Shown here: piece after piece, positions 6,600 through 64,000 of the stretch
Position numbering within the stretch: the stretch's first letter is position 1
Layout: every line of letters begins with the position of its first letter
Program-made: the position numbers and the translations under genes
Source: Candidatus Woykebacteria bacterium
GTDB taxonomy: Bacteria; Patescibacteriota; Microgenomatia; Woykebacterales; RBG-16-39-9b
Assembly: GCA_040876345.1 (NCBI GenBank)
Contig: JBBDPM010000006.1
Span: forward strand, 264,547 to 328,546
Length of the DNA stretch: 64,000 bases
Reading direction: 5' to 3'
The notes under the pieces: model-generated
Told to the model about the DNA's origin: nothing
Databases searched by the model: none
The model's input: only the letters and a program-made list of their open reading frames with translations

Positions 6600-7060
6600 A
6601 ATCGCACACCGCTTTTAATTATTCAAAAATTACTGACCAAATCTTTATCGGTACAAATCAGTGCTGCAAACTCCATTTTGATGAAAAATTACTAAGTCAA
6701 GGTATAACTGCTGATATTTCACTTGAGGACGAAAGTCTGGACACACCTTACGGAGTTAATTATTTCCTTTGGCTTCCAACCAAAAATCACCACGCTCCTA
6801 GCGAGCAGCAGCTACTCCTTGGAGCAGTCACTATCGATTTGCTAACAGAGCTTGGTAGCAAAGTTTACGTTCACTGTCAAAACGGCCACGGCAGAGCCCC
6901 TACTTTGGTAGCAGCTTACTTTATCAGTCAAGGAGGGAGTGTAAAAGAAGCGATAAATCTTATTAAGACTAAAAGACCTGAAATTCATTTAACTAAAGAG
7001 CAGCTTCACGCTTTGGAACATTTTGAAAAATCCGAAATTGAAAAGGAGCCTTGTTGCTGA
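6596..7060 (+). CDS. Cys-based protein phosphatase (dual-specificity/PTP-like, CX5R)
   Basis: Signature VHCQNGHGRAPT (HCxxGxxR[S/T]) of Cys-dependent phosphatases. Overlaps the upstream gene by 4 nt. Confidence 0.75.
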   Translation: MKSHTAFNYSKITDQIFIGTNQCCKLHFDEKLLSQGITADISLEDESLDTPYGVNYFLWLPTKNHHAPSEQQLLLGAVTIDLLTELGSKVYVHCQNGHGRAPTLVAAYFISQGGSVKEAINLIKTKRPEIHLTKEQLHALEHFEKSEIEKEPCC

Positions 7061-49192: not shown

Positions 49193-50548
49193 TTATATCT
49201 TTCTCTTCAACCTGCGAAGGAACACACCGGCTGGTGCTATACCACCAAGAAGTAGTAACAACGCTCCAGGACCAGTATTTGGAAGCTCTTTGATCTTACT
49301 AAGCACTTTACCAACTTGCTTGTTCCCAAATCGAACTTCAGAAAGCTCTTTGGCTTTAACTTCAACTTTAACGTTATTGTCGGTAGTGATTCTCCAACCA
49401 GCTGGGACTATTTCGGACACTCTGTAAGTTCCAGGCTCAAGGTCACGAATTATAACTACGCCATCACCTTCAGTGGTTACAGTTTTCTCAATTCCTTCAC
49501 CAGAGATTCTGAACTTGAATCCAGGTAGGCTGCGCTCACCATCGTTGAATGTTTTATCACCATTGCTATCTTCAAACTTGAAGATCTTTAAATGCCCACG
49601 CTCTGGCGCACCTTTCTTGACTTCTACTTTAATTTTGTTGTCACATTCAATCCAAACTGGAGTTTGATCAGATTTAATTCTAGCTGCGTTTCTGATTTCA
49701 GTTCCGTCTTTAACGTCACTTTTTACTTTAACTTTAAATTTCAAAAGACCTTTGTTAACTGTGTCTAAATCACCAACGTTAAGACCATCTTTGATCCAAG
49801 CGTCAGTTATATTAGTGTGGAAATTACCACGATCGTAAGTAGTACTACCTTTTATGTAAGTTACTTCAGAAGGAAGCACATCAAAAACTCTTACGTTATT
49901 AAGCACCATGTTACCGTTGTTGCAAAGCTCAATTGTGTAAGTAACAGTGTCTCCTGGAGAAACTGTAGATTTATCGGCTTTCTTAGCAGCACAAATACTT
50001 GGGTTTCTTAAGAACACCTTTGTCTGGGAATTCTTTTGAACTCTAGCTGTTTGATCGCTTGTAACCGAGACCGCACTCCAAATAATATTGTCATTATTGG
50101 CATTTTGAGCAACTCTGGTTTGATACTTAAGTATTACATTTGTACCTGAGAGTACCGTACCAAAGTTTACACCATCGCGAATCCATGCATCGGTTAGTGA
50201 ACGCGTAATTCCTGTAGAGGTTCTAGTGTAGGTAGTAGAACCATTTATGTAATCAGCTAAGTTCGGTTCGTTAATCCATAGGAAAACTGTAGTTAAGTCA
50301 GCTGTTCCCGTATTTTTTATTGTAAGAGTGTAATTAAGAAGGTCACCTCTGTCTGCAACCGCCTTATCAACCACATTGGTGAGCTCTATATTTGGCGCTG
50401 CGTGTACTGGTGTTGCTAATGCAAAAGTAATTGGCAATAGAGAACCAGAAAGTAGAGCAACGCTAGTTGCTCCTGCTAAAACTTTTTTAACTACTTTGTT
50501 TAATTTTTTCATAATTTTTCTTTTGGGCAGAAACCTTAAGAGGGGCAT
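49193..50548 (-). CDS. LPXTG cell-wall-anchored surface protein with DUF11-type repeats and a Cna-B/SpaA-type (prealbumin-like) domain
   Basis: Signal peptide. Two repeats of type LTIKNTGTADLTTV.../TIELCNNGNMVLNNV... Cna-B-like segment (GHLKIFKFEDSNGDKTFNDGERSLPGFKFRISGEG...LEPGTYRVSEIVPAGW). C-terminal sortase signal LPNTG plus hydrophobic segment plus RRLKRKI. Confidence 0.8.
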   Translation of the reverse strand: MPLLRFLPKRKIMKKLNKVVKKVLAGATSVALLSGSLLPITFALATPVHAAPNIELTNVVDKAVADRGDLLNYTLTIKNTGTADLTTVFLWINEPNLADYINGSTTYTRTSTGITRSLTDAWIRDGVNFGTVLSGTNVILKYQTRVAQNANNDNIIWSAVSVTSDQTARVQKNSQTKVFLRNPSICAAKKADKSTVSPGDTVTYTIELCNNGNMVLNNVRVFDVLPSEVTYIKGSTTYDRGNFHTNITDAWIKDGLNVGDLDTVNKGLLKFKVKVKSDVKDGTEIRNAARIKSDQTPVWIECDNKIKVEVKKGAPERGHLKIFKFEDSNGDKTFNDGERSLPGFKFRISGEGIEKTVTTEGDGVVIIRDLEPGTYRVSEIVPAGWRITTDNNVKVEVKAKELSEVRFGNKQVGKVLSKIKELPNTGPGALLLLLGGIAPAGVFLRRLKRKI

Positions 50549-50624
50549 GTGTCATCCTGAACTTGATTCAGGATCTCTGTTTAAGATTTGCGCACTATAA
50601 CATAAACTATGAGCCTTGTCAAGT

Positions 50625-50671
50625 CCCTCTTCGAAACTACTAACTTTTGCTACTAATTTCGAAGAGAGGGG
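50625..50671. other. Imperfect ~12-bp inverted repeat (CCCTCTTCGAAA ... TTTCGAAGAGAGGG) at the low-GC/high-GC boundary
   Basis: Read directly from the sequence. Lies between the LPXTG gene start and the 3' end of the high-GC operon. No clear poly-U tract on either strand. Confidence 0.4.
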
Positions 50672-50744
50672 CAGACGATTCTTGTCCGAAGACTAAGAAC
50701 CGTATTTGATCTCACTCCTTCCCCTCTCTCCTTCACCTATGACC

Positions 50745-51968
50745 TCAGGGCACCGACGTTGGGACCGGTGGCCTTGGCATCTGAGTCGCCGTCGGTGCAG
50801 GTGTATCGCTGGGTTCCGGCGTAAACGTCGGGGCCACTGACGTACCTCCACCTGGGTTGTCCTGGATAGGCGCAGGTGGGCAGCATGGTGGCGGTGATGT
50901 TGGGCGTGCATCTCCCGTTTGGGTCGGCGTTGGACCAGGCGGCCTTGGCGTATTCGTGGCCGTCGGCTTCGGTGTTGGTGACGGTGCCTCCTTACTCACC
51001 TGCTGGTTCTTGAACCGTGCAGGGATTGATTGGTCCGTCTCAACCCTGATGGTGACTTTGCCCGGCGTAACAGGCTCCCAACCAGTTTGATTGACCTCAC
51101 GAACTGTATACGTTCCAGGCTCGACATCGTCGAACCGGACCATACCCGATCCGTCGGTCACTCCTTCCAGGTGCTGAGGGCCATCCGCGATGATGCGGAA
51201 GCCCGGCACGGGAAGGTCACGGCCGAGAAGGTTATTACCATCGTCGGTCTTGACGACAGTAATCCTGCCCTTGCCAAGCGCAGGTGGCCTCTCCGGCGAT
51301 ATCTTGTTGCCGCACTCTTTGCGGAGATGCGTTTCAGCTCCGTCCTCAGTCAAGATCGTGAGGACTTTGTCGTCGGCGTTTTTGACATCTGTCTTCAAGC
51401 CGACCTGGTCACCACCGCTCACGAAAGTGTTGGCGATTATGACCTGTCCGTTCTCGACGTTGATGTCGAGGCGGTTGGCCAACTCGCCAATCGTCTCGTC
51501 CTTGAACTTGCTCACCCGGAGGATACCGTCGAGCATCGCGAACGCCTCTTTGCGCTTGTCCACGCATCGAAGCTCTTCGGGTGTTGGGATCTCATCGTAC
51601 ACTTGCGCTTCCGCAAGCACAAGCGGAACCCCTTCCACCTTGTGACGAGACTCCGCCAATAATTGGAGGAGCAGGGTGTGCAAAACGACAGGGTCGTGCT
51701 TAGCAGCAGCGCGGAGGTCGTCCACGCTCTTGAACCCGTCGTTCAGCACCCGGCCGCCATCGCCGTGGAGATCCTGAAGCTCCCATTCCCCTTCGCCCGT
51801 AGCGCAATCGAAGGTGGGGGTTGGCGTTCCATCCTTTGGCGTCGGTGTCGTTGTCGTTTGGGCGTCGGTGTCGCCCATGTTCATGCCCATGAAGATCAAG
51901 ACGACCAACAGAGCGACCATGGCAGTGACGACAGTAGCTACCGCTGTCCTCCATTGCCTTCGGTTCAT
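50745..51968 (-). CDS. High-GC (~62%) gene: membrane-anchored/secreted protein with a Cna-B-type domain and Pro/Thr-rich C-terminal region; compositionally foreign
   Basis: N-terminal TM AVATVVTAMVALLVVLIFMGM. Cna-B-like GFRIIADGPQHLEGVTDGSGMVRFDDVEPGTYTVREVNQTGWEPV. C-terminal PTPKPTATNTPRPPGPTPTQ tail. GC and codon usage (G/C-rich third positions) contrast sharply with the flanks. Confidence 0.65.
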   Translation of the reverse strand: MNRRQWRTAVATVVTAMVALLVVLIFMGMNMGDTDAQTTTTPTPKDGTPTPTFDCATGEGEWELQDLHGDGGRVLNDGFKSVDDLRAAAKHDPVVLHTLLLQLLAESRHKVEGVPLVLAEAQVYDEIPTPEELRCVDKRKEAFAMLDGILRVSKFKDETIGELANRLDINVENGQVIIANTFVSGGDQVGLKTDVKNADDKVLTILTEDGAETHLRKECGNKISPERPPALGKGRITVVKTDDGNNLLGRDLPVPGFRIIADGPQHLEGVTDGSGMVRFDDVEPGTYTVREVNQTGWEPVTPGKVTIRVETDQSIPARFKNQQVSKEAPSPTPKPTATNTPRPPGPTPTQTGDARPTSPPPCCPPAPIQDNPGGGTSVAPTFTPEPSDTPAPTATQMPRPPVPTSVP

Positions 51969-52366
51969 GACCCACCTCCTGTGGTCTGTTGCGGCGGCGG
52001 CTGAGGAGCCGGCGCAGTAACGTTGACGTTCACGTCAATGACCATGTGGTGCTGACCGCCTTGCTGTGCCGTTTGGGGCGGCGGCTGAGGAGCCGGCGCT
52101 GGCTGAGCCTTCCTCCCACCACCGTTCCGGTTGATCACATTCATGGCGTAGTTCGCCGCCACAGCGAAGGCTTTGAGATGATCCTGCGGTGCGGCTTTGC
52201 GCCGACTGGCATTGTCAGCCAAGTCGAGAATACCGACCGCAGTCTCCATCTCGTCGATGGGGTTCGGCTGCTCCTCACGCGGTCGCCACATGATCAGGAG
52301 CAACAGCAGGAAGAAGAACAGCCCCATCCCTGCTGCCGCCAAGACAAACCATCCAATGTTATCCAT
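51965..52366 (-). CDS. High-GC small membrane protein (133 aa) co-oriented and overlapping (ATGA) with the downstream Cna-B protein gene
   Basis: TM GWFVLAAAGMGLFFFLLLLLIMW, then a Pro/Gln/Ala-rich low-complexity tail. Same compositional island. Confidence 0.5.
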   Translation of the reverse strand: MDNIGWFVLAAAGMGLFFFLLLLLIMWRPREEQPNPIDEMETAVGILDLADNASRRKAAPQDHLKAFAVAANYAMNVINRNGGGRKAQPAPAPQPPPQTAQQGGQHHMVIDVNVNVTAPAPQPPPQQTTGGGS

Positions 52367-53495
52367 GGTTCACCTCCCATTGGGATGAAAAGACCACGTA
52401 TGTGGTCTGCTTGCCGATGTTGTGAAACGCCCTTTTGGGCGGAACTAAGTTTGTCACCACCTTGTGCCCAACGAACTAACCAGATCACTAAAATACTGAG
52501 ACAAGAAATCTAATAAATGTTTGCCATTTCTTTCTCAAAAAATTCAACTAATCTGATCAGATTGTTGGGCACAATCAATTATTTAGGCAAAATTTCAAGG
52601 TGCAAAAATTTGCCAGGGCAGCATAACACAGTTCTGCCCATTTGTCAAACTATGGGGCTTTCTTGAGGCTAAAAAATCGCTTACAATGGATATTTTGTAT
52701 AGAGGTCGGGTACTATCTTACTAAATGTACAACTAAGTTGTTCAAAACCAATAATGGCCGCTCCTCAGCGCCCAGTATGAGTGTTACCCCAAACCGGACG
52801 CCAGGGACCGACCATTACGAAATTACGAAGCTAAAATTTATAGTGTACAAGGTGCTACTTATTATATTGCTTTAGTCACCTTTTGTATAAACGCTGTTTC
52901 AGGCTTGACTTTTATTTTCAGGAGCCTTTTAATATATACAAAGAGTGCACCTGCTGTCCAGATGTACTTCCCGAAGCACTGCCATTGGTGTCTAAAGAAA
53001 TCCTTCCGACCATGGTGGTGCTTCGTTTTTTAACACCCTTTTTCGTTGTCAAAGTCCTTCCGAAAAAATTCTCAGATAATTGATTTCTCTGATTACCTGA
53101 CTAACCCTAATGTTAGTCGCTTTTCCAACTAATATATCATTCCAAAAAAATCTCATTAACTCTTCCCTCATCACTAATAACTAGCTTGATGATTCCTCCC
53201 CGACTTTACGTCGGGGGATCGCCACAATCCCTGCCCATTGTTCTTGTGGCTTGGGAAGCAATGCTTCCCTTTTAGAGGGCCTACCTCTAATAGCTAATTG
53301 ATAAGGAGCTTTAATTAAGATACTTTATCATCCTAATTAACACTCTAAGGTGTATTCTGCCACATTATTATTAGGTTGTCAAGTTTTGTAACCCCATAGA
53401 AAAAAATAGTCTAAATTTTTGTGTGCCCCATAGTTAAAATAGGTTCGATAAAAGGGTTTTTTAGCGATGTGAAAAACTTTTAAGGGTCGCGATTG

Positions 53496-54419
53496 TTAGA
53501 CAACTGGGGGTTCTAGTCGCTTAGCAAATATCATCCTGCCAGCGGCTGTCTGAAGGGCTCGAGAAACTACCACGTCTACTGTTTCTCCTATTAAATTTCC
53601 GGCATTTTCAACTACAATCATCGTCCCGTCTGGAAGATAGGCTACACCTTGATTTTTCTCTTTACCCTCTTGGACTAGCTTCACGCTTATATCTTCACCC
53701 GGAATGAGCGGGGTTTTAACAAAATTGGAGAGATCATTGACATTTAAAGTTTTAACTCCCGAGACAGAAGCCACTTTATTGAGATTAAAATCGGTGGTGA
53801 TTAGTTTCGCCCGCCAACCCTTTGCTAGCTTGAGAAGCTTCTCATCGATACCTTTTAGACCACTCTGGCCTGTTTCGTAAACCACTATTTTAATACTATT
53901 TATCTTCTTAAGTGCCTCTAATATTTCAAATCCCCGTCTACCCCTTGCCCGCTTTAGTTCATTACTAGAATCGGCAATATTTTGAAGCTCCAAAAGAATA
54001 AAATTTGGTACGATGATTGTGCCGAATAGGAAATGGCTTTCAGCTACACCCAAAATACGACCGTCAATTAAAGCGCTAGTGTCAACTACCATTGGGTTAA
54101 CCCACTTAGAAGTCTCTCTATTTCTGCCTCTTCTCACTGGATTTGAAATGCGAGGCATCTGAGGCATTTGCGGGATTCGAAGCTGCGAAATAACTTCTTT
54201 GGCTACTCTTTGGGCAAAGGCACCGCTCCAGTACCCAACCCAGCGGGTAACAAGCGGGAAAACGTAAATACCCGCACCCAAACCTAAAGCTACGCTAATT
54301 ACCCTTACGCCCAGACGCACTCCAGCCTCGGGTGGATTAAGAAAAAGAGTCGAGAGGTAAAAACCGGCTGCTCCAAAAGCAATTCCAATTGCAAGCCTAA
54401 TTAAGGCTCTGACATTCAT
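53496..54419 (-). CDS. PIN + TRAM domain membrane protein (YacL-like)
   Basis: N-terminal TM helices. PIN domain (MVVDTSALIDGRI...). C-terminal TRAM-like beta-barrel (GETVDVVVSRALQTAAGRMIFAKR). Sits next to radA as in Bacillus (radA-disA-yacL). Confidence 0.75.
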   Translation of the reverse strand: MNVRALIRLAIGIAFGAAGFYLSTLFLNPPEAGVRLGVRVISVALGLGAGIYVFPLVTRWVGYWSGAFAQRVAKEVISQLRIPQMPQMPRISNPVRRGRNRETSKWVNPMVVDTSALIDGRILGVAESHFLFGTIIVPNFILLELQNIADSSNELKRARGRRGFEILEALKKINSIKIVVYETGQSGLKGIDEKLLKLAKGWRAKLITTDFNLNKVASVSGVKTLNVNDLSNFVKTPLIPGEDISVKLVQEGKEKNQGVAYLPDGTMIVVENAGNLIGETVDVVVSRALQTAAGRMIFAKRLEPPVV

Positions 54420-54526
54420 TAAAGATAAGTCCCTTCCGCTTGCCCGGTGATAAATCCAACTTTGAAAGATAAGGCAAGTCGAGAATGCATTATAACATAT
54501 ATTTTAAATACCGAACAAAAATGGTT

Positions 54527-55837
54527 TTATTTCCCCAGTCCCAATCCTTCTCTCACCGCTTCTCTAAGGGTTCTTACGTTTTTCGGCGTAATAAATTTCT
54601 TAAAACCCAAGCGTTTTGCCTCATCTAGCCTTTTATTAATATAAGGAACTTCACGCACCTCTCCAAGAAGGCCAACCTCACCAACAACCACAGTGTCTTT
54701 TGGCACAACCTTATCGTAAGCGGATGATGCGATTGCAAGGCAAATTGCTAGGTCGGCGGCCGGCTCAGCTACTTTCAGGCCACCGGCAACATTTATAAAA
54801 ATATCTTGGTTTCCGACTGATAAGCCCGCCCTTTTGATTAAAGTAGCAGATAGTAGTGAGAGTCTATTTTGATCAATTCCACTTGCCCGACGAACCGGAA
54901 GACCAAAAGTAGTCGGGTTTGTAAGAGCCTGAATTTCGGTCAGCACGCTTCTTGACCCTTCAAGAATTGGAACGACAACTGATCCTGGAGCCGAGATTCT
55001 ACCTGATAAAAACTCTTTCGAGGGGTTTTTTACTTCCTCCATTCCTTTTTCGGTCATTTCAAAAACGCCAATTTCATCCACCGGCCCGAACCGATTTTTG
55101 GAAGCAGATAAAATCCTGAATAAATGGTGCTGTTCACCTTCCAGGAAAAGCACTGTATCAACTAGATGCTCAAGTACCTTTGGCCCGGCCACTGAGCCTT
55201 CTTTCGTAACATGACCGATCAAAAAGACTGCCACCCCTTTTTCCTTAGCAAGCCGGTGGAGACGATAGGCGGATTCGCGAACTTGAGAGACGGAGCCAGC
55301 TGCTGAATTTAAATCTTCAGTCACTAAAGTTTGGATTGAATCGGCGACTACGACTTTATAGCCGTCTTGGGAAATTGAGGCGATGGCCACATCAACATCT
55401 GTTTCCGGAACAATAAAAAGATCTTTTGAACGCTCTCCAAGACGGTCAAAACGAAGTTTTACTTGCTCAACCGATTCTTCGGCGGAAATGTATAAAGACT
55501 TGAAACGGGCGGCAAGCTGAAGAAGCAGCGTTGATTTACCAATTCCTGGGTCTCCGGAGAGTAAAATTACACTGCCCGGAACTATCCCTCCCCCAAGTAC
55601 CCTATCAAGCTCCAAAATCCCACTCTTAAGCCTCTGTAATGGCTTTCTTGAGGCTTCCGACAACCTCTGCGGGCTAGATACTTCTTTTTTGCCACCTGTA
55701 CTACGCGCCCTACTCCCCACCAACTCTATTGTTTCTACCAAGCTACCCCAAGCCTCACAATTCGGACATTTACCTAAGTACTGAGGAGACTGGTACCCAC
55801 ATTGTTGGCAAATGTATTTTGTTTCACTCTTACCCAT
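54527..55837 (-). CDS. radA: DNA repair protein RadA/Sms
   Basis: N-terminal C4 zinc finger CQQCGYQSPQYLGKCPNCEAWG. Walker A GDPGIGKSTLLLQ. KNRFG motif. C-terminal Lon-protease-like domain. Confidence 0.95.
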   Translation of the reverse strand: MGKSETKYICQQCGYQSPQYLGKCPNCEAWGSLVETIELVGSRARSTGGKKEVSSPQRLSEASRKPLQRLKSGILELDRVLGGGIVPGSVILLSGDPGIGKSTLLLQLAARFKSLYISAEESVEQVKLRFDRLGERSKDLFIVPETDVDVAIASISQDGYKVVVADSIQTLVTEDLNSAAGSVSQVRESAYRLHRLAKEKGVAVFLIGHVTKEGSVAGPKVLEHLVDTVLFLEGEQHHLFRILSASKNRFGPVDEIGVFEMTEKGMEEVKNPSKEFLSGRISAPGSVVVPILEGSRSVLTEIQALTNPTTFGLPVRRASGIDQNRLSLLSATLIKRAGLSVGNQDIFINVAGGLKVAEPAADLAICLAIASSAYDKVVPKDTVVVGEVGLLGEVREVPYINKRLDEAKRLGFKKFITPKNVRTLREAVREGLGLGK

Positions 55838-56082
55838 AGCTCGCGTATTCTAGCAGTTACAAGTAATAAGAGACAAGTTGTGAAAAATTCAAGATTATAA
55901 TTTAAATTTTTAAAAGAAAAACGACCCATTTCCGAGTCGTTCTTCCTCCTAAGAAAACCAACATTATCTGACTTCCTTAGGAATTGGAGGTTTTTATGTA
56001 ACCACTCATTATCTAAGTCAAGGGAAACCTCCACTGGTAACCTTGACTTACCTCTCCCATCGCAGGACAGGATTTTGGGGGT

Positions 56083-56568
56083 CTAAAAGTCGTAATCTAC
56101 GCTGCGGATTTCCAAGTCAGGCGGGTAGTGATAGCCTGTGTACTGGTACGACAATCGACCATCTGGCTCGACACAAACCAGCACATTAAGCAACTTGAAA
56201 GTCTTTTCGTCTTCGATCGAAATCCGACCTATACCTTCAGGGCTCTTCTCTGCTATTTCCCGAGCCCACGGAAGGTGCCTCGACAAGTACTCCTCAATTA
56301 AGAGAAGCGTTTCTTCACTCGCCGGTTCAATAGGCAAGGATTCCGAGTCGATTAGAGCATGACCAAGTTCTCTGAACCTTAACTCTCGGTCATACTCCAT
56401 CCTCCTTTCAGGATCGCTCAGAACTTTGTACGCCTCCTGGACTTTTTTGAAGTTCTCGGCATCTCCACCTAAATCTGGGTGAACTTTTTTGGCCTCCCTT
56501 CTATAGGCAGATCTTACCTGTGACGCGTCAGCGTCGCGAGGAATCCCTAACCTTTTATAATGGTCCAC
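56083..56568 (-). CDS. J-domain (DnaJ-like) protein
   Basis: J-domain with HPD (DHYKRLGIPRDADASQVRSAYRREAKKVHPDLGGD) followed by an unrelated C-terminal region. Confidence 0.8.
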   Translation of the reverse strand: MDHYKRLGIPRDADASQVRSAYRREAKKVHPDLGGDAENFKKVQEAYKVLSDPERRMEYDRELRFRELGHALIDSESLPIEPASEETLLLIEEYLSRHLPWAREIAEKSPEGIGRISIEDEKTFKLLNVLVCVEPDGRLSYQYTGYHYPPDLEIRSVDYDF

Positions 56569-56744
56569 TATCCTCTCCTTGTCCCGCGGCCCTTATGTCC
56601 ACTGCAGACTAGAAAAGTCTAACATAAAACCCAGATTATTTCAACTATAGGGTTAAAACTTTCGACCAGCAAAAACTGTTTGACAACCTTTAAAAAACCT
56701 GTCTATAATAACTAGCAAACGGCTGCCCACGATAAACCAAAATA

Positions 56745-57947
56745 ATGGCAAGGGCACAAAGACAGCAACCATCAAAATCTCCTGCGCAATCAACTCCCGC
56801 TAATCAACTCACCATAACGGTAATCAAAGCCGATTGTGGCTCTTTGGGTGGTCACACAAAACCTTCTTCCGGAATGCTGAGGCTCGTTAAAGATTACATC
56901 GCCATTAGACCGTGGATGATTGATTACAAAGTAACACATACTGGTGATGACATCGCCATTATCACTACCCATAAAGAGGGGGTGAGCTCCGCCACTGTTC
57001 ACAAAGATTGCCGCACTGCCTTTGAAATTGCGGCTGATAAGGCCGCGAAAGAAGGTCTTTATGGGGCTGGTCAAGACCTTTTCCCTACTTCCCCAAGCGG
57101 AAATGTCCGAGGCACAGGCCCAGGAGTAGCCGAAATTTCGTTTGAACTTTTGCCAAATCATAGACCAGCCGAGTCCATCGCTATTTTTGCGGCTGATAAA
57201 TGTGGCCCTGGAGCCTACAATCAGGCCCTTTACCAATCGTTTGCCGACCCTTCCCGAAGCTCTGGATTTTTGCTCAGTCCAGACGTTGGTAAAGGCTACA
57301 CCTTTGTAATCGAAGACATGGATCATAAGGTACGGGCTGGTGGCGCCCCAACCCACCGCCAAGTCCGTCTGAACGCGCCGGAAGAAAACACGGCAATTTT
57401 GGCGCTTCTTCGCAATATCGACCGCTATGGAATCGCCACGATCGTTAGTCGAGCATACCCTGCCGAAATAGCCGTCGCCGCCAGTACAGACCGGCTTCAC
57501 AATATTACCGGTACTTATCAGGGTAAAGACGACCCAGTAATGATCGTACGTAATCAAAGAATCTTCCCTGCTTTGGAAGAAGTTGTCGACCCCTTTAGAC
57601 TAACCCCGTTGATAACAGGTGACGCAAGGGGCAGCCACACAATGCCTTTGATGCCCGCCCCGATAAACACTCCGGTTGCCGGCTCTTACTGTTTACCATT
57701 AGTAAGCTGCCTTGCCTTTTCAGTTAATGCTGAAGGTAAGTTAAGTGAGATGGTGGATGTTTTTGGCAACTTCGCTTGGGATCGCTACCGCGCTCTTGCG
57801 CAAGAGAGAGCTGATTGGATGAGGCAGCAAGCACCATTTGGCGTTGCCATGGCCTCTCAAGAAGAAATAGCCTACACCGGCCTTCAAAAACTCCAAGAAG
57901 CGCTTGATAAACGCTTCGAAATTGTCCCCGAAGTCACCCAAAAGTAA
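56745..57947 (+). CDS. Bifunctional fructose-1,6-bisphosphate aldolase/phosphatase (archaeal-type, FBPase class V)
   Basis: N-terminal LTITVIKADCGSLGGH and GLYGAGQDLF match the conserved start and core of class V FBP aldolase/phosphatases. About 48-52% GC, above the genome background. Confidence 0.75.
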   Translation: MARAQRQQPSKSPAQSTPANQLTITVIKADCGSLGGHTKPSSGMLRLVKDYIAIRPWMIDYKVTHTGDDIAIITTHKEGVSSATVHKDCRTAFEIAADKAAKEGLYGAGQDLFPTSPSGNVRGTGPGVAEISFELLPNHRPAESIAIFAADKCGPGAYNQALYQSFADPSRSSGFLLSPDVGKGYTFVIEDMDHKVRAGGAPTHRQVRLNAPEENTAILALLRNIDRYGIATIVSRAYPAEIAVAASTDRLHNITGTYQGKDDPVMIVRNQRIFPALEEVVDPFRLTPLITGDARGSHTMPLMPAPINTPVAGSYCLPLVSCLAFSVNAEGKLSEMVDVFGNFAWDRYRALAQERADWMRQQAPFGVAMASQEEIAYTGLQKLQEALDKRFEIVPEVTQK

Positions 57948-58051
57948 TTTCTCTTTTTCTCAGTCTATTTTGACACGCGAAAAAACAGATGTATTATTGA
58001 TTTATAACGGTCGAAGGGATTCCCGATCACTTCGGGAGAAAGGAGTCTCAG

Positions 58052-58303
58052 ATGCGCGTACTACCGACAGTAGCGATTGACCTATCAACCGTCTCCGAGT
58101 GCGGGTCAGACCGAACGTTCCGGGGGACCTTGCTCGGCCACATTGACGGTCGACGGCGCGGCTCTCAGGTCGAAGGCACATTCAGCGGCCGAGAGCTGCT
58201 CCTAGAGGTACGCAGTTTGCGCAGGCGTAAACCAAGGCGAGGTATCATTGGTGTCTTCAACCCCGAAACCGGCTGCCTAGTCACCGTCGAACCTGAGAAC
58301 TGA
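58052..58303 (+). CDS. Small high-GC ORF (83 aa), member of a tandem paralogous trio
   Basis: Strong SD (AAAGGAG) 8 nt upstream. The C-terminal region (GIIGVFNPETGCLVTV) parallels the other two ORFs (VVAYYDAVTGVITQL; VVALYDDTRGAIESL). Confidence 0.45.
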   Translation: MRVLPTVAIDLSTVSECGSDRTFRGTLLGHIDGRRRGSQVEGTFSGRELLLEVRSLRRRKPRRGIIGVFNPETGCLVTVEPEN

Positions 58304-58361
58304 TAAGATCGTACCAACGCGGCGCACAAGAACCAATTCACAGAAGAAGGAAGGTGACAAC

Positions 58362-58634
58362 ATGATCCTAGTCGCAGCGAAGGTCACAAATGTAACCGTG
58401 AACTGGGACTTGGGCAAGGCCTTTGGCGATATCGTAGTCCTTCGAGGCGGCGTGTGTGTACGACGATGAGAACAGAACCTCGCAGTCTTCGACAGTTTCC
58501 GTAACGGCTGTAAAGCTGCCGAGGACATAAGTAGGGGTGAGCCTGTGGTAGCCTACTACGACGCGGTCACGGGCGTTATCACTCAGCTCCTCCCCGCGAA
58601 AAGCTGGACGGGAGAGCTCGAGGGGATCGACTGA
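58362..58634 (+). CDS. Small high-GC ORF, paralog of 58842-59114, interrupted by an in-frame TGA at 58467-58469
   Basis: SD GGAAGGTGA. MILVAAKVTNVTVNWDLGKAFGDIVVLRGGVCVRR-TGA-EQNLAVFDSFRNG...EPVVAYYDAVTGVITQL... aligns along its full length to the 90-aa paralog, where Gly stands at the TGA position. Confidence 0.4.
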
Positions 58635-58841
58635 CCCGGAGTCACCTACTCAACAGCTGGCGGGCGTAGTATGAAAAATCAGCAAGGAGAGGAAAGGGCG
58701 CCTTGGGATACTTGCGAAAGCTTTTACCCCGAGGCGCTTTGGCGTTTTTAGATACTTTTGACATATTTAAATTTCTTGATATACTACTCCCCTAGTTAAC
58801 GATAGGGCGCTATCAACCCACGGGATAAGGGAGGTGACAGA

Positions 58842-59114
58842 ATGAGCCTAGTTGGAGCGTTGGTGACTACTGCGACTGTTGGCGGTAGTGGTGGCTCTGC
58901 CACAATCACAGTCCTCAGAGATTGCGCACGGCATAAGAAGGGTGAGCAGACTGCAGCAGTCTTTGATAACCCAGGAGATGCCGAGAGAGCAACGAGACTC
59001 ATCCGTGAGAAGGAGAGGGTGGTCGCTCTATACGACGACACCAGAGGTGCGATCGAGTCTCTTAGCGATGCGGTCTGGGACGAGGAACTCGAACAGCTCG
59101 ACGACTCGCAATAA
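58842..59114 (+). CDS. Small high-GC ORF (90 aa), paralog of the two upstream ORFs
   Basis: SD GGGAGGTGA 5 nt upstream. MSLVGALVTTATVGGSGGSATITVLRD...EQTAAVFDNPGD...ERVVALYDDTRGAIESL. Confidence 0.5.
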   Translation: MSLVGALVTTATVGGSGGSATITVLRDCARHKKGEQTAAVFDNPGDAERATRLIREKERVVALYDDTRGAIESLSDAVWDEELEQLDDSQ

Positions 59115-59164
59115 CCTGCTCACGGCTGGCCTTACCTTTGCGCCCTGGGCAAGGTCAGCTACAC

Positions 59165-59896
59165 TCAAGCAGCTCTCGCGATTGTAAAGTAACTCACCTC
59201 ATCAAGACCAGGTGCAAACTCTAGTACTTCAAATCCATTTTCTTCCAACAACTTTTTAACATCTTCCTGAGAAAACCCTCTTACTAGGTGTTCCACATCA
59301 TAAAACCTAGCTTCTCCGTTATCGTAGGCCTTAAAAGAAAAGGCTAAATTGGTTATGGGTGGGTCATAACTAACAATTTTTGTTTTTATATGCCTAGCAA
59401 TCTCAATTCCGTCAATCTTAATTTTTTTTATCTCCGGGTAAAGCTCTCCTTGTAACATCTTATCGGCAAAAAAAGTATCAAAAATCAAAATACCCTGGGG
59501 CTTTAAAGAATCATGAAATTTTTCGAGTGCTTCTGAAATATCTTCATCGGTTAATAAATGGGGGAAGGCTCTACCCGCCAAAATCACGGCATCAAACTCT
59601 TCTGAAAGGTGAAAATCCCGCATATCTGCAAGGGTCTGAGGAATTTTTGGGAGAAGCTTGTGGGAGAGCTCAATCATTTCTTTCGAGCTGTCCAACATCT
59701 GCACATCGTATTTATTTTTTTGAGAAAGAATTTTTGTAAGACGGCCCGGGCCAGAGCCAACATGAAGAACCTTCTTGGCTCGATACTTTTTTAAATATTG
59801 ATCAATTAAACTGGCAACTTTAGGGTAGTTGAAATGCTTTTGGTAAAAAAGGTCGTAAATATTGGCGAGATCGGTATAGAGCTTTGATTGATCCAT
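59165..59896 (-). CDS. Class I SAM-dependent methyltransferase
   Basis: Motif I KVLHVGSGPGRLTKIL and post-I acidic residue (MLDSS). Confidence 0.75.
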   Translation of the reverse strand: MDQSKLYTDLANIYDLFYQKHFNYPKVASLIDQYLKKYRAKKVLHVGSGPGRLTKILSQKNKYDVQMLDSSKEMIELSHKLLPKIPQTLADMRDFHLSEEFDAVILAGRAFPHLLTDEDISEALEKFHDSLKPQGILIFDTFFADKMLQGELYPEIKKIKIDGIEIARHIKTKIVSYDPPITNLAFSFKAYDNGEARFYDVEHLVRGFSQEDVKKLLEENGFEVLEFAPGLDEVSYFTIARAA

Positions 59897-59906
59897 TTAC
59901 AGTTTT

Positions 59907-62327
59907 TTACTTAATTACTATCTCGTTCTTTTCCACCTTAACCTCAACAGTCTCTCCCTTTTTAAACTTCCCAGAAATTATTCCCTCGGAGAGCGGGTCT
60001 TCTATTTTTTCTTGAATTACCCTTTTTAGCTCTCTTGCTCCATATTCTGGGGAAAATCCAAGCTCAACTAGCTTTGTATAAACGCTTTCATCTGTTTTGA
60101 GCTTTATTTTAAGATCTTTGAGCCTTTCCTTAACCTCGGCTAATTCTAAACTCGCTATTTTCTTAACCACTACTTTATTTAAAGGCTTAAAGACAATTAT
60201 TGAATCAACTCTATTTAAAAATTCCACTTTAAAGCTGCGCTTAAGCTCCTCCTTCAATTTATTCGACATTTCTTGGTGATATTTTATCTCGCTTTTTCGC
60301 CCTTCTTCTTTTTTGGAAAAGCCAATATCCCCTTCTTTCCTGATTAAGTGCGAGCCGACATTACTTGTCATAATGAGGACGCAATTCCTAAAATTCACAA
60401 TTCTCCCTTTTCCATCCATAAGATGACCATCATCTAATACTTGGAGCAAAATATTGAAAACTTCGGGATGGGCTTTTTCAATCTCATCAAGTAGGACAAC
60501 GCTGTAAGGGTGGTGACGAAGTTTCTCGGTTAATTCTCCTCCTTCTTCATAACCAACGTATCCAGGTGGAGCACCAACTAGGCGAGAGACGGTGTGGCGT
60601 TCCGAAAATTCACTCATGTCAAGGCGAATCAAGGCTTCTTCATCCTCAAAAAGAGCCCGGGAGAGGGTTTTGGCAACTAAAGTTTTTCCCACCCCGGAGG
60701 TGCCAAGAAAGATAAAACTTCCAATCGGCCTTTTCGGATCACGCAAGCCTACCCGAGAGCGGCGAAGAACTGAAGCGAGATTTCTTAAAACTTCCCCTTG
60801 CCCTACAACACTCTTTCCCAGCTCTTTTTCTAGGTTCAGAAGCCTTTGGGCTTCGTCTACAGAAAGCTCTTCAGTTGGGATACCAGTTATCATGGAGACC
60901 ACTTCAGTCACATCTGCTTCATCGACTATCCTAGCTTCTCTTGTTTGGTTCTTAGAAAGGATTTCTTCTAGTTGATCTTCTAATTTTTTCTCTTTTTCGC
61001 GTAGCTTAATAGCTGTATCGTACTGTTCTTCTTTAACTAAACTTTCCTTGTCCAAACGCAGGGATTTGATCTTGTCCTCAATGTGGATAGCCGATGGTGT
61101 TAGCGAGTTTACTCGAACTGCTTTTTTAGATGCCGCTTCATCTAATATATCAATTGCGCTATCTGGTAAGTGTCTATCGGTAAGGTAGCGCACTGCCAGG
61201 TTTACGGCAAGATCAATTGCCTTTTTCTTGATTCTAACTCCGTGAAAATCCTCGTAGCGTTTTTTCAAACCTTCCAGAATACCAACCGTGGTTTTCTCAT
61301 TTGGCTCCTCTACCATTATCGGCTGAAATCTTCGCTCTAGGGCCGGATCTTCCTCAATAAAATGGGCGTATTCATCCACGGTAGTCGCCCCAATACAATT
61401 AAGCTCTCCTCGGGCTAGTGCTGGTTTAAGGATGTTAGCAGCGTCCAAGGCGCCGCCCGCACCCCCCGCACCAACAATAGTCTGAATTTCATCAATGAAC
61501 AAAATTATGTTGCCCGCGTCTTTTATCTCATCGATAACTCCCAAAAGTCTTTCCTCAAAGTCCCCTCTAAAACGAGTGCCCGCAACTAAGGCGTTGAGAT
61601 CAAGACTAATGAGCCTCGTGCCAAAAAATTTCTGGGGGACAGTTCGTTCTACTATTCTTTTAGCAAGCCCTTCCACGATCGCTGTCTTGCCGACTCCCGC
61701 CTCCCCAAGCAGAACTGGATTATTTTTTGTCCTTCTGGAAAGCACTTGAAGCACCCGAGAAATTTCATTGTGTCTACCAATAACCGGATCTAGCTTACCA
61801 GAACGGGCTAAAGACGTAAGCTCGCGGCTATAATTATTTAAAAGTGGTGTTTGAGGTTGTTTAGTTGGGGTCTGGGGCTGTTGGTAAGAAGTGTAAGACT
61901 CTACTCTACTTTTTAAAGATTCGTAAGTAATGCCCCAGCTTCTTAAAATATGACAGGCAAGACCAGATGGAGTCTTAGCCAGTCCACAAAGTAAGTGCTC
62001 GGTCCCGACAAAAGGAGAACCCCAAAGATAGGCTTGAAGAGCGGCCGCCGCAATTGCTTCTTGAGAGCTTTCGGAAAAGCCACCATCATTGTCCTCTTGA
62101 ACTCCTTCTGGATCAGTTGAGGCGATAACTGCTTCCCTCACTTTCTCGGAGTCAACCTGAAAGCTAGAGAGTACTTTGTGAGCAATTGAGGTTTTGTCCT
62201 TTAAAATTCCAAGCAAAACATGTTCGGTGTCGACAATATTTGAATTGAGTTCTCTGGCCTCTTTGGCGCTGACAGAAAGAGCTCTTCTAGCTCTTTCAGT
62301 AAATTTTTCGATTAACTTCTTGCTCAT
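59907..62327 (-). CDS. clpC: ATP-dependent Clp protease ATP-binding subunit ClpC
   Basis: Clp_N repeats. Two AAA+ modules with Walker A ([18 protein letters not shown]; [19 protein letters not shown]). Short middle domain. 806 aa. Adjacent to radA as in Firmicutes. Confidence 0.9.
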
Positions 62328-62356
62328 ACGCTATTTATAGAGTGCTGAGTTATTAG

Positions 62357-63562
62357 TTATGATTTTTTAGTTGCTTTCTTAACCTTTCGCGTCTTGTCCT
62401 TAGCCTGAGTTTTGGCAGTGGCCCTCTTTTCTTGGTCACTTGGCACGTCAGTGGGTTTCTTTTCCTTCTTCTTCTCCACAGACTCATCTTTTTCATCAGT
62501 CTCAAGCCTCAATGCGACTCTTCTCTGCTCCGGGCTAAAAAGATCAATACTTACGGTAACTTTGTCTCCTCTATCAAGCTTTTTGCCATAAGGTATTTTA
62601 GAGCTGTGAATCAATCCTTCGATTCCCTTTTCAAGCTGAACAAAGGCGCCATATGAGCTTATTCTTGAGATTTCCGCTTTAATTTCTTTACCAACTGGGT
62701 ATTTGCTTTCTGCTTTTTTCCAGGGGTCTTCTTCAAGCTGTTTTATGGATAGGTTTACTTTTCCAGAGCCAGGATCTATTTCTACCACTTTCACCTTAAC
62801 CTTATCACCAATTTTAAATATCGCATCCAGCGCCTCAACTCTTTCCCAAGAAATCTCACTAATATGGACTAGCCCATCAACGCTGCCCATTTCTCCTTCT
62901 GTTGAGGATGGTAGGCCAACCAAAATTCCAAACGGCAAAATTTTGCTCACTTTACCTTCTATCTCTTCGCCTTCTGAGAAGGGAAGCTCAAATTTAGGAA
63001 GTTTGGCCGCTTCGGGATTGGCCTCTTTTTCAGAAAAAACTAGGCGATTGAGTTTTTTATCAACTTCCAAAATTTTAACTTGAATTGGTTCAGTCGAATC
63101 TTTGCTTGGATTACTTGTTAAATGCGAGGATGGAATAAAACCCCGAATACCACCAAAATCTACTAAAAATCCCCCTTTATTTGATTCAACTGGGCGTACT
63201 TCTACTGTCTCATAAGTTTCCATCTTCTTGGTAGCTTCTTGCCAACGACGCTCACTTCCGGCTTTTTTGATGGATAAAATAACTTGACCACCCTCAGATT
63301 CTGGTACCAGCACATAAGCCATGAGGTTGTCCCCTATTTTTATATTTTCTAGTTTTTCATCGCTTTCAAGCTCTCGGGCGGAAATTACTCCTTCTGCCTT
63401 TGCCCCAATGTCAACAAAAACTTGGTCCTTACTTTTAGCAACTACTTTGCCTTCAACAATTTGGCCTCTGGAAAGGGTTTTTGGAGCATAGTCTTCTTTT
63501 TCAAGAAGAGCTCCCATTACTGAACTTGGGTTAGATGAAATTATTTTATTTGATTTTGCCAT
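62357..63562 (-). CDS. rpsA: 30S ribosomal protein S1 (four S1 domains, Lys-rich C-terminal tail)
   Basis: Repeated S1 OB-fold motifs (GQIVEGKVVAKSKDQVFVDIGAKAEGVI; GEEIEGKVSKILPFGILVGL; GDKVKVKVVEIDPGSGKVNLS; GKEIKAEISRISSYGAFVQLE). Confidence 0.85.
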   Translation of the reverse strand: MAKSNKIISSNPSSVMGALLEKEDYAPKTLSRGQIVEGKVVAKSKDQVFVDIGAKAEGVISARELESDEKLENIKIGDNLMAYVLVPESEGGQVILSIKKAGSERRWQEATKKMETYETVEVRPVESNKGGFLVDFGGIRGFIPSSHLTSNPSKDSTEPIQVKILEVDKKLNRLVFSEKEANPEAAKLPKFELPFSEGEEIEGKVSKILPFGILVGLPSSTEGEMGSVDGLVHISEISWERVEALDAIFKIGDKVKVKVVEIDPGSGKVNLSIKQLEEDPWKKAESKYPVGKEIKAEISRISSYGAFVQLEKGIEGLIHSSKIPYGKKLDRGDKVTVSIDLFSPEQRRVALRLETDEKDESVEKKKEKKPTDVPSDQEKRATAKTQAKDKTRKVKKATKKS

Positions 63563-63736
63563 AAAACTCCTGTTCTTAATCTAAAAGTTTCCCTAGTATA
63601 GCTTAAATCATATCGATATTCAAACAGTAAACCAAGACTAAATTTGATCTTAAGCGCCAAGGCCCACCGAACAGTCTTTTGACAAAACTGTGGTGGGCCC
63701 CTCTTGGCAACTTTTGCCATCGCTCACCTACTCCCG

Positions 63737-64000
63737 TCACTCGTCCTCGATGCCGTGATCCTTTAGATAGTCGAGAACGTCTTGCACCTTGACAAGCTTC
63801 TCTGCTTCTTCGTCCGAAATCTCGAAAGGCTGATCGTTATTCGTGAAGAACTCTTCCTCCATCGCCATGATCATCTCGACAAGATCCAGCGAGTCAGCGT
63901 TGAGATCGTCGACGAAATTGGAGTGCGGTTGCACCTGATCCGATTCGACTCCGAGTTGCTCAACGACAATCCTCACCACCCGATCGAAAACCGTTTCCTT
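63737..64000 (-). CDS. acpP: Acyl carrier protein (N-terminus beyond the window end)
   Basis: Phosphopantetheine attachment motif [21 protein letters not shown]. The reading frame is open to the window edge (..[17 protein letters not shown]). Confidence 0.7.

Follow-up and report, generated by a model that had tools for sequence, protein, structure and literature searches.

A GC-rich stretch of about 1.2 kb in a 'Candidatus Woykebacteria' (CPR) MAG probably harbors a new family of small OB-like proteins together with a pseudogenised duplicate. The region (57950-59165) lies within a window, i.e. the complete stretch of DNA that was analyzed, of 64,000 nucleotides. It is likely to be a cassette of small genes of the CPR chromosome, which occupies a variable slot of elevated GC between radA and a convergent block of a methyltransferase (MTase) gene and clpC. 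The third of its ORFs, ORF3, represents an extremely narrow family with three intact members among approximately 15 billion proteins. The second, ORF2, is a paralog of ORF3 whose reading frame is interrupted by a TGA.

Organization of the cassette

The three co-oriented small ORFs of the initial annotation are present on the plus strand at the positions reported there: ORF1 (83 aa, 58052..58303), ORF2 (90 codons, 58362..58634) and ORF3 (90 aa, 58842..59114). Each was said to follow a strong Shine-Dalgarno (SD) sequence, and such sites are indeed found 6-7 nt ahead of all three ATG codons: AAAGGAG for ORF1 (58039..58045, 6 nt), GGAAGGTGA for ORF2 (58349..58357) and GGGAGGTGA for ORF3 (58829..58837).

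A promoter scan returned three promoter-like sites, compared to 0.9 in shuffled sequences. Promoter P1 (TTGACA-16-TATTAT, 57970..57997, plus strand) agrees with the sigma-70 consensus at 11 of 12 positions and is the predicted driver of ORF1 and ORF2. The same score is reached by P2 (TTGACA-16-TATACT with TG before the -10 hexamer, 58758..58785, plus strand), the predicted driver of ORF3, which can be aligned to the promoters heading the cassettes of two related loci, L013 and L014. Ahead of P2, the predicted fold contains a terminator-like hairpin with a 13-bp GC-rich stem followed by TTTGGCGTTTTT (58695..58750, plus strand) that would close the ORF1-ORF2 transcription unit. A simple terminator scan missed this hairpin because its loop is too long.

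A further hairpin, GGCTGGCCTT...AAGGTCAGC (59124..59160), is located between the convergent stop codons of ORF3 and the methyltransferase gene. It folds in the window as well as in L013, L014 and a third related locus, L017, with a mean column identity of 67% in the sequence alignment. The downstream copies of the relatives have z-scores of -4.4 to -4.5, and L013 contains a second copy upstream of its ORF3 homolog (z = -3.9). This hairpin is probably a bidirectional terminator, and it marks the right-hand boundary that the cassette had ancestrally.

No known RNA accounts for the GC-rich DNA, as Rfam models at the gathering threshold detected only two tRNA-Ala genes in the whole window, and a permissive scan of 57800-59300 (E ≤ 10) gave no match. 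Nothing relevant was found in the literature on Woykebacteria. A daptide/RiPP reading of the methyltransferase was rejected (best NCBIfam match 54 bits versus a cutoff of 175; other RiPP genes are absent).

ORF3 and its syntenic orthologs

NCBI lists the ORF3 product as a Ca. Woykebacteria hypothetical protein. Among about 15 billion proteins, two further full-length homologs, P0003 and P0004, are found. These were the sole full-length homologs in an exhaustive HMMER search of 1.84 billion cluster representatives, and a word-indexed search of 5.8 billion clusters had the same outcome. Both homologs belong to Woykebacteria-like genomes. Sequence profile searches of Pfam, PHROGs, NCBIfam, PADLOC and PDB yielded nothing for ORF1-3 or the orthologs. 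For defence, toxin-antitoxin and phage families in particular, PADLOC was empty at E ≤ 1, Pfam was empty, and the sole PHROG match had an E-value of 0.32.

The genes for P0003 and P0004 (loci L013 and L014) immediately precede, and converge on, the orthologous gene for a 243-aa methyltransferase, with ClpC next in line. Identities of the small proteins (P0003-P0004 50.5%, ORF3-P0003 46.7%, ORF3-P0004 42.2%) rank in the same way as those of the methyltransferases (70% between L013 and L014, 56-60% between the window and either of them). Length (90-93 aa), start and stop are kept across the genomes, and indels are in frame. With dN at 0.46-0.61 and dS at 1.4-4.8 (saturated), dN is well below dS. 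L017, which is the closest relative of the window by methyltransferase identity, does not have the family, and loss or replacement thus happens at this slot.

Since homologs occur at the same site, are GC-rich too, and follow the identity ranking of the methyltransferase, ORF3 would be vertically inherited and not recently acquired. We therefore consider it likely that ORF3 is a functional, lineage-specific member of a very narrow family, with the congruence test resting on three taxa. Its product is probably a cytosolic, acidic protein of about 90 aa (family pI 4.5-5.1; ORF3 4.5). The gene has a promoter of its own that comes close to the consensus, a strong ribosome-binding site and a 3' hairpin that is conserved.

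HMMER also returned matches to repeat proteins with 'PVVSYYD' motifs, and this lead was dropped. These 'PVVSYYDATNGDLKVL' beta-propeller-like proteins (P0005-P0011, Chloroflexota/Actinomycetota type, with weak Pfam matches to DUF1936 and BNR_4) share the beta-hairpin motif hhhxYDxxxGxhxxL with the ORF3 family, and summed E-values over 3-5 repeats reach 4e-7 to 8e-4. However, a profile-profile comparison (hhalign) with the repeat unit gave a probability of only 2% over 26 columns, and ORF3 is predicted to form a barrel, not a blade. The likeness was thus treated as motif convergence.

Composition and origin of the cassette

The initial annotation described the region as an island of ~58% GC and took it to be foreign DNA. 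The measured values are somewhat lower, with a GC content of 0.539 across 57950-59165 and 0.54-0.57 over the island and its ORFs (0.57 in the ORFs), compared to a host background of 0.416. GC at third codon positions (GC3) is 0.55-0.69 in the island ORFs and 0.24-0.42 in approximately 45 host ORFs. The composition is thus atypical, as expected of a genomic island, though the core ACP gene shares it (GC3 of 0.67 and 0.66 in two genomes).

Recent acquisition of the entire 1.2 kb from a high-GC donor, with the small ORFs as cargo, would explain this composition, but we regard it as unlikely. It is favored by the lack of homologs of ORF1 and ORF2 outside the host genome, by slot contents that vary between relatives, and by the gene next door, whose product (an FBP aldolase/phosphatase) is 74-78% identical to Dehalococcoidia proteins. 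On the other hand, orthologs of ORF3 lie at the same position in two other lineages and share its promoter and 3' hairpin, and their divergence tracks that of the methyltransferase. P0003 and P0004 have retained a GC content of 0.52-0.53 versus 0.36-0.37 in the methyltransferase genes, and a GC3 of 0.44-0.55 versus 0.32-0.35, despite saturated synonymous sites, which indicates that the bias is maintained and does not reflect recency. Moreover, the GC3 of the ACP gene is equally high. At the cassette itself there is no integrase, tRNA or convincing pair of flanking direct repeats, and the site is not empty in the relatives, as the ORF3 orthologs are syntenic in L013 and L014. Small ORFs beside Dehalococcoidia FBPase genes, which were tested for co-transfer, gave no match better than E = 0.1. 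Searches of phage DNA and a plasmid tblastn found no match; viral contigs, scanned with the 407-aa protein of a first island in the window only, contained no relative of that protein.

For ORF3, the premise of foreign DNA is therefore not supported. The raised GC is more plausibly a maintained property of the cassette genes, as it is for ACP, than a mark of recent import. To equate a high-GC island with foreign DNA is unsafe in the CPR lineage studied here, because composition alone misleads: the ACP gene and a small gene of vertical descent have kept a GC3 of 0.55-0.67 amid values of 0.24-0.42 in the other genes.

The 3' hairpins were also considered as integron or REP elements. In integrons, an attC site with the R''/R' core (RYYYAAC...GTTRRRY) follows each promoterless ORF, and intI is nearby. 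The hairpin GGCTGG...CCAGCC of the cassette does not have the GTTRRRY core, no more copies of it occur in the window, the ORFs have promoters of their own, and no integrase is found nearby. Both ideas were rejected.

As a separate observation, the slot between radA and the methyltransferase gene has different contents among relatives, and the Dehalococcoidia-like FBP aldolase/phosphatase adjoining the cassette may indicate gene flow from Chloroflexota.

Predicted fold of ORF3

An AlphaFold2 (AF2) model of ORF3 based on a five-row alignment reached a pLDDT of 86.5 and a pTM of 0.73, while a poor single-sequence model (pLDDT 62) was discarded. The model contains strands at residues 3-13, 18-24, 36-41, 60-65 and 70-75 and helices at 44-55 and 80-88. 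The resulting predicted order, b1-b2-b3-a-b4-b5-a, agrees with that of OB folds, which are closed or semi-closed barrels of five strands. ORF3 is thus predicted to form a five-stranded barrel resembling an OB fold, and the C-terminal helix behind it carries a conserved Trp.

In a Foldseek search, the model superimposed on SilF (8bhu, 8bbz) with TM-scores of 0.59-0.68, and E-values fell short of 1e-3. TM-scores were lower for the Mycoplasma SSB (2hql) and for the OB domains of Rpt/PAN, with 0.35-0.48 for SSB. Small single-domain OB-fold proteins such as CusF/SilF, small bacterial SSBs and the OB rings of PAN/Rpt ATPases resemble ORF3 in having the order b1-b2-b3-helix-b4-b5 in about 80-90 aa. 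ORF3 differs from them in that there is no sequence similarity and in an additional C-terminal helix with a conserved W..EL motif.

Two candidates among these proteins were rejected. CusF and SilF are periplasmic proteins with a signal peptide and a conserved His/Met/Met/Trp site for Cu(I)/Ag(I). In ORF3 the signal peptide and the conserved Met are absent, the Met/His/Trp metal site is not kept, and there is no Pfam or NCBIfam match, so that an identity as CusF/SilF metallochaperone can be discarded. An identity as bacterial SSB was discarded as well, given the missing profile match, the low TM-score, the acidic pI of 4.5-5.1, and the lack of both a linker, which in SSBs is disordered and leads to an acidic C-terminal tip, and an SSB-type aromatic/basic face for binding ssDNA.

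The analysis demonstrates the layout of the cassette, the paralogy of ORF2 and ORF3, the synteny, the conserved Gly described below and TGA as a stop codon. The expression level of ORF3, its fold and its mode of action are inferences: the product may bind a ligand, either nucleic acid or a protein partner, through the face of the barrel on which the conserved LRD...HKxG loop lies. The acidic pI of the family fits badly with a classical nucleic-acid-binding OB protein. The confident OB-like predicted fold and the strong expression signals make the ORF3 family a candidate lineage-specific factor in this uncultured group of episymbionts.

ORF2 and the in-frame TGA

ORF2 and ORF3 were claimed to align end-to-end if the TGA at 58467..58469 is read through, and this paralogy proved firm. 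Across the TGA, the two sequences are 41% identical (E = 3e-13, z = 20 against shuffles), and ORF2 scores 44 bits with an HMM of the intact members. At the DNA level, the alignment begins ~30 nt ahead of the start codon and reaches as far as the arms of the hairpin. The ORF2 SD lies in a 66-nt segment with 71% identity to the start region of ORF3, and the two units align on through the 3' flank (ACCTaCTCaACaGCTGGC ... TCAGC). Downstream of ORF2, a degenerate copy of the conserved GCTGG...CAGC hairpin (58656..58683, plus strand) has paired arms in the predicted fold.

The TGA is aligned to Gly34 of ORF3, a residue shared without exception by the three intact members (GGT in ORF3 and P0003, GGA in P0004), so that a single G-to-T change explains the stop codon. 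ORF2 is the most divergent copy (31-32% identity to the orthologs, compared to 42-47% for ORF3). Of the 33 residues that are invariant in the family, it has lost 13, among them D27 and H31 beside the stop, and retains 20. PGAP called neither ORF1 nor ORF2, ORF2 has no gene call in either of two assemblies, and the look-up had no record of its 35-aa N-terminal product.

Of the two explanations offered in the initial annotation, i.e. a nonsense mutation or a recoded codon, we retain the first: the TGA is most readily understood as a plain nonsense mutation in a duplicate that is decaying. ORF2 would stem from an old tandem duplication that copied the SD, the ORF and the hairpin as one unit, and its later divergence would have outpaced that of ORF3. 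It may then have been inactivated when one GGA-to-TGA substitution removed the invariant loop Gly just before strand b3. Translation would end after 35 residues, which cover b1 and b2 only, and for this reason we judge ORF2 to be a pseudogene. It resembles other nonsense-mutated tandem duplicates (unitary pseudogenes) in its own SD and 3' hairpin, its faster evolution and a stop that is one substitution away. In contrast to such pseudogenes, its duplication is old (dS is saturated) but only one lesion is present, suggesting that inactivation was recent relative to duplication.

That the TGA reflects a minor allele or an error of sequencing or assembly, with an intact ORF2 in the actual population, is very unlikely. 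Run SRR27977662 was assembled independently by Logan, and this assembly includes the TGA and is 100% identical over 11.2 kb; its reads are possibly shared with the NCBI assembly GCA_040881185.1, and MAG and Logan contig probably derive from the same or related read sets. ORF2 is, moreover, carried by one population only. Nevertheless, two assemblers arrived at the same sequence, substitution errors are rare at good coverage (the usual artifact is an indel), and an intact 90-aa ORF2 protein is absent among the ~15 billion proteins searched.

Decoding of the TGA as selenocysteine, or its programmed readthrough with Gly or Trp inserted, with a downstream hairpin assisting and a full-length 90-aa product as the result, is highly improbable. 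The frame continues intact for 54 codons past the TGA with the motifs VVAxYD, GxI and W..EL kept, the SD is strong, and a weak hairpin begins 11 nt 3' of the TGA (58478..58524, plus strand, -19.1 kcal/mol, z = -2.4), while the equivalent segments of ORF3, P0003 and P0004 have z-scores near 0. Yet this hairpin is marginal, being equalled by 5 of 200 shuffles and gone in a 121-nt context (z = +0.4), and the loss of invariant residues includes those beside the stop. TGA closes 13 of 50 long host ORFs, rho and the methyltransferase gene among them, which bears out the earlier statement that the rest of the window uses it as stop; core genes are uninterrupted. The frames of ORF1, ORF2, P0003 and P0004 likewise terminate naturally with TGA, at their conserved C-terminus. 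With TGA as the normal terminator of both host and family, a reassignment of UGA is not supported.

The Gracilibacteria and Absconditabacteria, which also belong to the CPR, use genetic code 25, in which UGA encodes Gly. An in-frame TGA at a conserved Gly position in a CPR genome is reminiscent of this code. Here, however, the genome does use TGA as terminator, core genes are not interrupted by it, and the single instance occurs only in the most degenerate paralog; code 25 was thus rejected. Selenocysteine is unlikely because the aligned residue is Gly, not Cys, in all intact homologs. The hairpin downstream of the UGA, where a bacterial selenoprotein gene would have its SECIS element, matches no Rfam model, no Rfam element was found near the TGA at E ≤ 10, and the only tRNAs of the 64-kb window are the two tRNA-Ala.

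Taking ORF2 as a decaying duplicate, its TGA matters little for the biology of recoding. Residual or regulated expression may still occur, given a 90-codon frame with one stop, the strong SD, and the hairpin close to the TGA. The idea that the UGA is read through at a regulated low rate via the ORF2-specific hairpin, giving a full-length divergent OB-like paralog, has very little probability in our estimate. If true, ORF2 would exemplify stop-codon readthrough stimulated by structure, in a CPR bacterium with sister lineages in which UGA has been reassigned to Gly.

ORF1 as a possible third paralog

The initial annotation counted ORF1 as a third paralog, and for this ORF the evidence is much weaker than for the ORF2-ORF3 pair. 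Its product is Arg-rich with a pI of 10.4, its frame ends in TGA followed by TAA, and its only database match is itself. At E ≤ 100, BLASTP matched it to neither ORF2 nor ORF3, in contrast to the highly significant similarity of those two to each other. Only profile methods gave a signal (p of ~1e-4 to 1e-3 overall). ORF1 scores 7.6 bits with the family HMM, which was reached by 0 of 2000 shuffles, and hhalign against the family yielded P = 1e-4 to 3e-4 with a probability of 27-39% over 72-78 collinear columns. ORF1 could thus be at best a remote paralog of ORF2 and ORF3.

That the ORFs are not genes at all and the GC-rich DNA is non-coding (e.g. a structured RNA) with chance ORFs is most improbable: such DNA does produce long spurious ORFs on both strands (alternatives of 81-102 aa) and two of the ORFs lack a PGAP call, but the ORF3 family is under constraint across genomes, its AF2 fold is confident, GC1 exceeds GC2 in the named frames, SD and promoter spacing are correct, and Rfam has no match. 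The doubt applies to ORF1 only.

Neither ORF1 nor ORF2 has a counterpart elsewhere, and the two may have been imported separately. GC by codon position in ORF1 is 0.63/0.52/0.63. ORF1 is likely to be a genuine gene, perhaps a third paralog that has diverged very far, and would be co-transcribed with ORF2 from P1, the other strong promoter of the cassette.

Organisation of the small-gene cassette

The region between the FBP aldolase/phosphatase gene (FBPase, 56745-57947, plus strand) and a convergent class-I methyltransferase (59165-59896, minus strand) is best read as a cassette of small genes that is specific to the lineage and inherited vertically, and in which a tandem duplicate has become a pseudogene. 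What the initial annotation had observed here is largely real. Three co-oriented small ORFs with strong Shine-Dalgarno (SD) sites were indeed found, at 58052-58303 (ORF1, 83 aa), 58362-58634 (ORF2, 90 codons, interrupted in frame by TGA at 58467-58469) and 58842-59114 (ORF3, 90 aa), with the SD site 6-7 nt upstream of the ATG in all three. The GC content is elevated as described, but slightly less than the ~58% given: 0.539 for 57950-59165 as a whole and 0.57 for its ORFs, compared with 0.416 in the window outside GC-rich stretches. Two promoters were predicted, P1 at 57970-57997 and P2 at 58758-58785, each agreeing with 11 of the 12 positions of the sigma-70 consensus; P2 also has a TG ahead of its -10 hexamer. 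Between the P1 and P2 units, a GC-rich hairpin of 13 bp is predicted to fold at 58695-58750, with TTTGGCGTTTTT on its 3' side, and a second hairpin lies between the ORF3 and methyltransferase stops (59124-59160). These signals yield the anatomy P1-ORF1-ORF2-terminator, followed by P2-ORF3-hairpin.

The ORFs had been described as three paralogs, which was borne out by pairwise alignment for ORF2 and ORF3. These two align end-to-end across the TGA, as initially noted (41% identity, E=3e-13, z of about 20 against shuffles). Their DNA alignment extends from about 30 nt 5' of the start codon, including the SD site, to the 3' flank and the hairpin arms, and the duplicated unit was thus SD-ORF-hairpin. 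ORF1 showed no BLASTP similarity to either and is connected to them by profile alignment only: its residues 7-77 are collinear with an HMM built on the family's three intact members (7.6 bits, a score equalled in 0 of 2000 composition-preserving shuffles), and hhalign (P=1.2e-4 to 3.2e-4, probability 27-39%, 72-78 columns) places its RRRG|SQ on the family motif HKxG|E. ORF1 is basic (pI 10.4), whereas the ORF3 family is acidic (4.5-5.1). By these sequence comparisons ORF1 is a possible remote paralog of the family, with the chances for and against roughly even.

ORF3 homologs and synteny

A word-indexed search of 5.8 billion clusters with ORF3 and ORF1 returned nothing but the query itself. 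An exhaustive HMMER search of 1.84 billion representatives yielded two more full-length ORF3 homologs from related genomes, P0003 (93 aa) and P0004 (91 aa); no more were gained from a profile search that used every family member. Both genes occupy the syntenic site, where they directly precede and converge on the orthologous gene for the 243-aa methyltransferase, with ClpC next in line; the P0004 gene (locus L014) comes right after radA. The promoter heading the cassette and the GGCTGG...CCAGCC hairpin closing it are shared by both loci. The small proteins (identities P0003-P0004 50.5%, ORF3-P0003 46.7%, ORF3-P0004 42.2%) show the same ranking as the methyltransferases (70% between L014 and the P0003 locus, L013; 56-60% between the window and either). 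In another relative (L017) the same slot is occupied by another FBPase (35% identity), by GcvH and by two membrane products, a small protein and a 37-aa peptide; no ORF3 family member was found there. The slot is thus variable, yet the ORF3 family is ancestral to it.

The GGCTGG...CCAGCC hairpin ends the small-gene cassette in all four lineages (mean column identity 67%). In the window it is found at 59124-59160 and, degenerate, after ORF2 at 58656-58683, with no further copies; in L013 it flanks the P0003 gene on both sides (580-615 and 960-995), and it is present at 3706-3737 of L014 and about 6740-6775 of L017. It is probably a terminator, and might also take part in duplicating or exchanging cassettes.

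Ahead of the ORF3-like position, the relatives have one or more genes for small membrane proteins (L014 3029-3370; L017 7054-7404 and about 6910-7023 (-); L013 80-190), where the window has the basic, soluble ORF1. Those of 113 and 117 aa have a common MDLxAxG start and weak similarity (E=1e-3). The relatives also encode 36-37-aa single-TM peptides with strong SD sites. For the 243-aa methyltransferase of the window, the top NCBIfam match is a daptide-type RiPP methyltransferase (54 bits; cutoff 175); this identity was rejected, as the similarity is generic and RiPP genes were not found nearby.

The in-frame TGA of ORF2

Judging from the sequences, we conclude in favour of one of the two options originally proposed: the TGA arose relatively recently, as a nonsense mutation in a duplicate that is old and evolves fast. 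It lies, as first described, opposite a glycine of the paralog: Gly34 of ORF3, invariant in the three intact members (GGT in ORF3 and P0003, GGA in P0004), and one transversion suffices to turn GGA into TGA. No other member has diverged as far as ORF2, which shares 31-32% identity with the orthologs (ORF3: 42-47%) and has lost 13 of the 33 family-invariant residues, including D27 and H31 beside the stop. Since the glycine precedes strand b3 in a loop of the AF2 model, a 35-aa ORF2 product would hold b1 and b2 only. The TGA site is the same in the NCBI MAG and the Logan assembly of SRR27977662, and no intact ORF2 protein was found in the databases searched.

The other option, a locally recoded or readthrough codon, is unlikely. 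As had been stated, the window uses TGA as a stop; it ends 13 of 50 long ORFs, and it is the natural stop at the conserved C-terminal end of ORF1, ORF2, P0003 and P0004. Taken as sense, it would lengthen P0003 by some 30 codons, running across the hairpin. The single odd feature is a different hairpin that begins 11 nt 3' of the ORF2 TGA (-19.1 kcal/mol, z=-2.4, 5 of 200 shuffles as good); it has no counterpart at this place in the intact family genes, of which there are three, is not significant in a longer context and matches no Rfam model.

Base composition

GC3 is 0.24-0.42 in about 45 host ORFs, with outliers in island 1, the first high-GC island (0.67 and 0.69), a J-domain protein (0.52), the FBPase (0.45) and ORF1-3 (0.55-0.69). 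The initial reading of the region as foreign DNA is weakened by the orthologs at the syntenic site, which are also GC-elevated (GC3 0.44-0.55 vs 0.32-0.35 in their neighbours) and whose synonymous sites are saturated (dS 1.4-4.8), and by the core acyl carrier protein (ACP) gene, whose GC3 is equally high in two related genomes (0.67 and 0.66; other genes there about 0.35). This gene lies at 14896-15168 of locus L001, overlapping the window end at about 63737-64000, and at 8211-8480 of L014. GC-rich codon usage thus marks at least one conserved gene of the lineage too, and a bias that outlasts synonymous-site saturation points to maintenance, which might operate through expression-linked codon choice, for example, rather than to a residue of recent import. 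Codon-class counts of ORF1-3 are similar to those of ACP and do not separate maintained bias from import.

Nature of the ORF3 family

Although the finding as a whole is of an ordinary kind, ORF3 belongs to a protein family that is both new and very narrow. Searches of Pfam, NCBIfam, PHROGs, PADLOC and PDB sequences gave no match. The family lacks the metal ligands of CusF, has no signal peptide and shows none of the features of SSB. The HMMER search of representatives also gave weak multi-repeat matches to large 'PVVSYYDATNGDLKVL' repeat proteins; propeller-repeat kinship was rejected, the likeness being just a common beta-hairpin motif (hhalign 2%). Our best guess is that the product would be an abundant cytosolic single-domain beta-barrel binding a ligand or partner on a putative face where the conserved LRD...HKxG loop sits together with the W..EL helix of the C-terminus. 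The acidic charge disfavours simple nucleic-acid binding.

Neighbouring genes and assembly

The 161-aa J-domain protein (56083-56568, minus strand) has an N-terminal Pfam DnaJ domain (E=2e-20), an unmatched C-terminal half and a GC3 above the host range; it was not found in the radA-methyltransferase slot of L014 or L017. The window FBPase shares 74-78% identity with enzymes of Dehalococcoidia/Chloroflexota whose genomes have a GC content of 0.62-0.69; two of these genomes are MAGs named 'Lejia...' with accession prefixes near those of the window MAG. Its GC3 is intermediate, and at the same slot L017 has the 35%-identical version and L014 none. This suggests transfer from Chloroflexota to this CPR lineage, or xenologous replacement.

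Island 1 (50600-52400) comprises two minus-strand ORFs (GC 0.59-0.61). They adjoin the gene of a host surface protein of the DUF11/SpaA kind (49193-50548, 451 aa) that carries an LPNTG-like motif. In the first ORF (50745-51968, 407 aa) residues 253-320 weakly match a SpaA/CarboxypepD_reg domain and the C-terminus is rich in Pro and Thr, and no relative of its product was found in viral contigs; the second (51965-52366, 133 aa) has a TM segment and a Pro/Gln-rich region. An independent Logan contig (L002) is 100% identical to the window over 52766-64000 and starts ~370 bp short of the island 1 edge, where population heterogeneity at the island may have broken the assembly.
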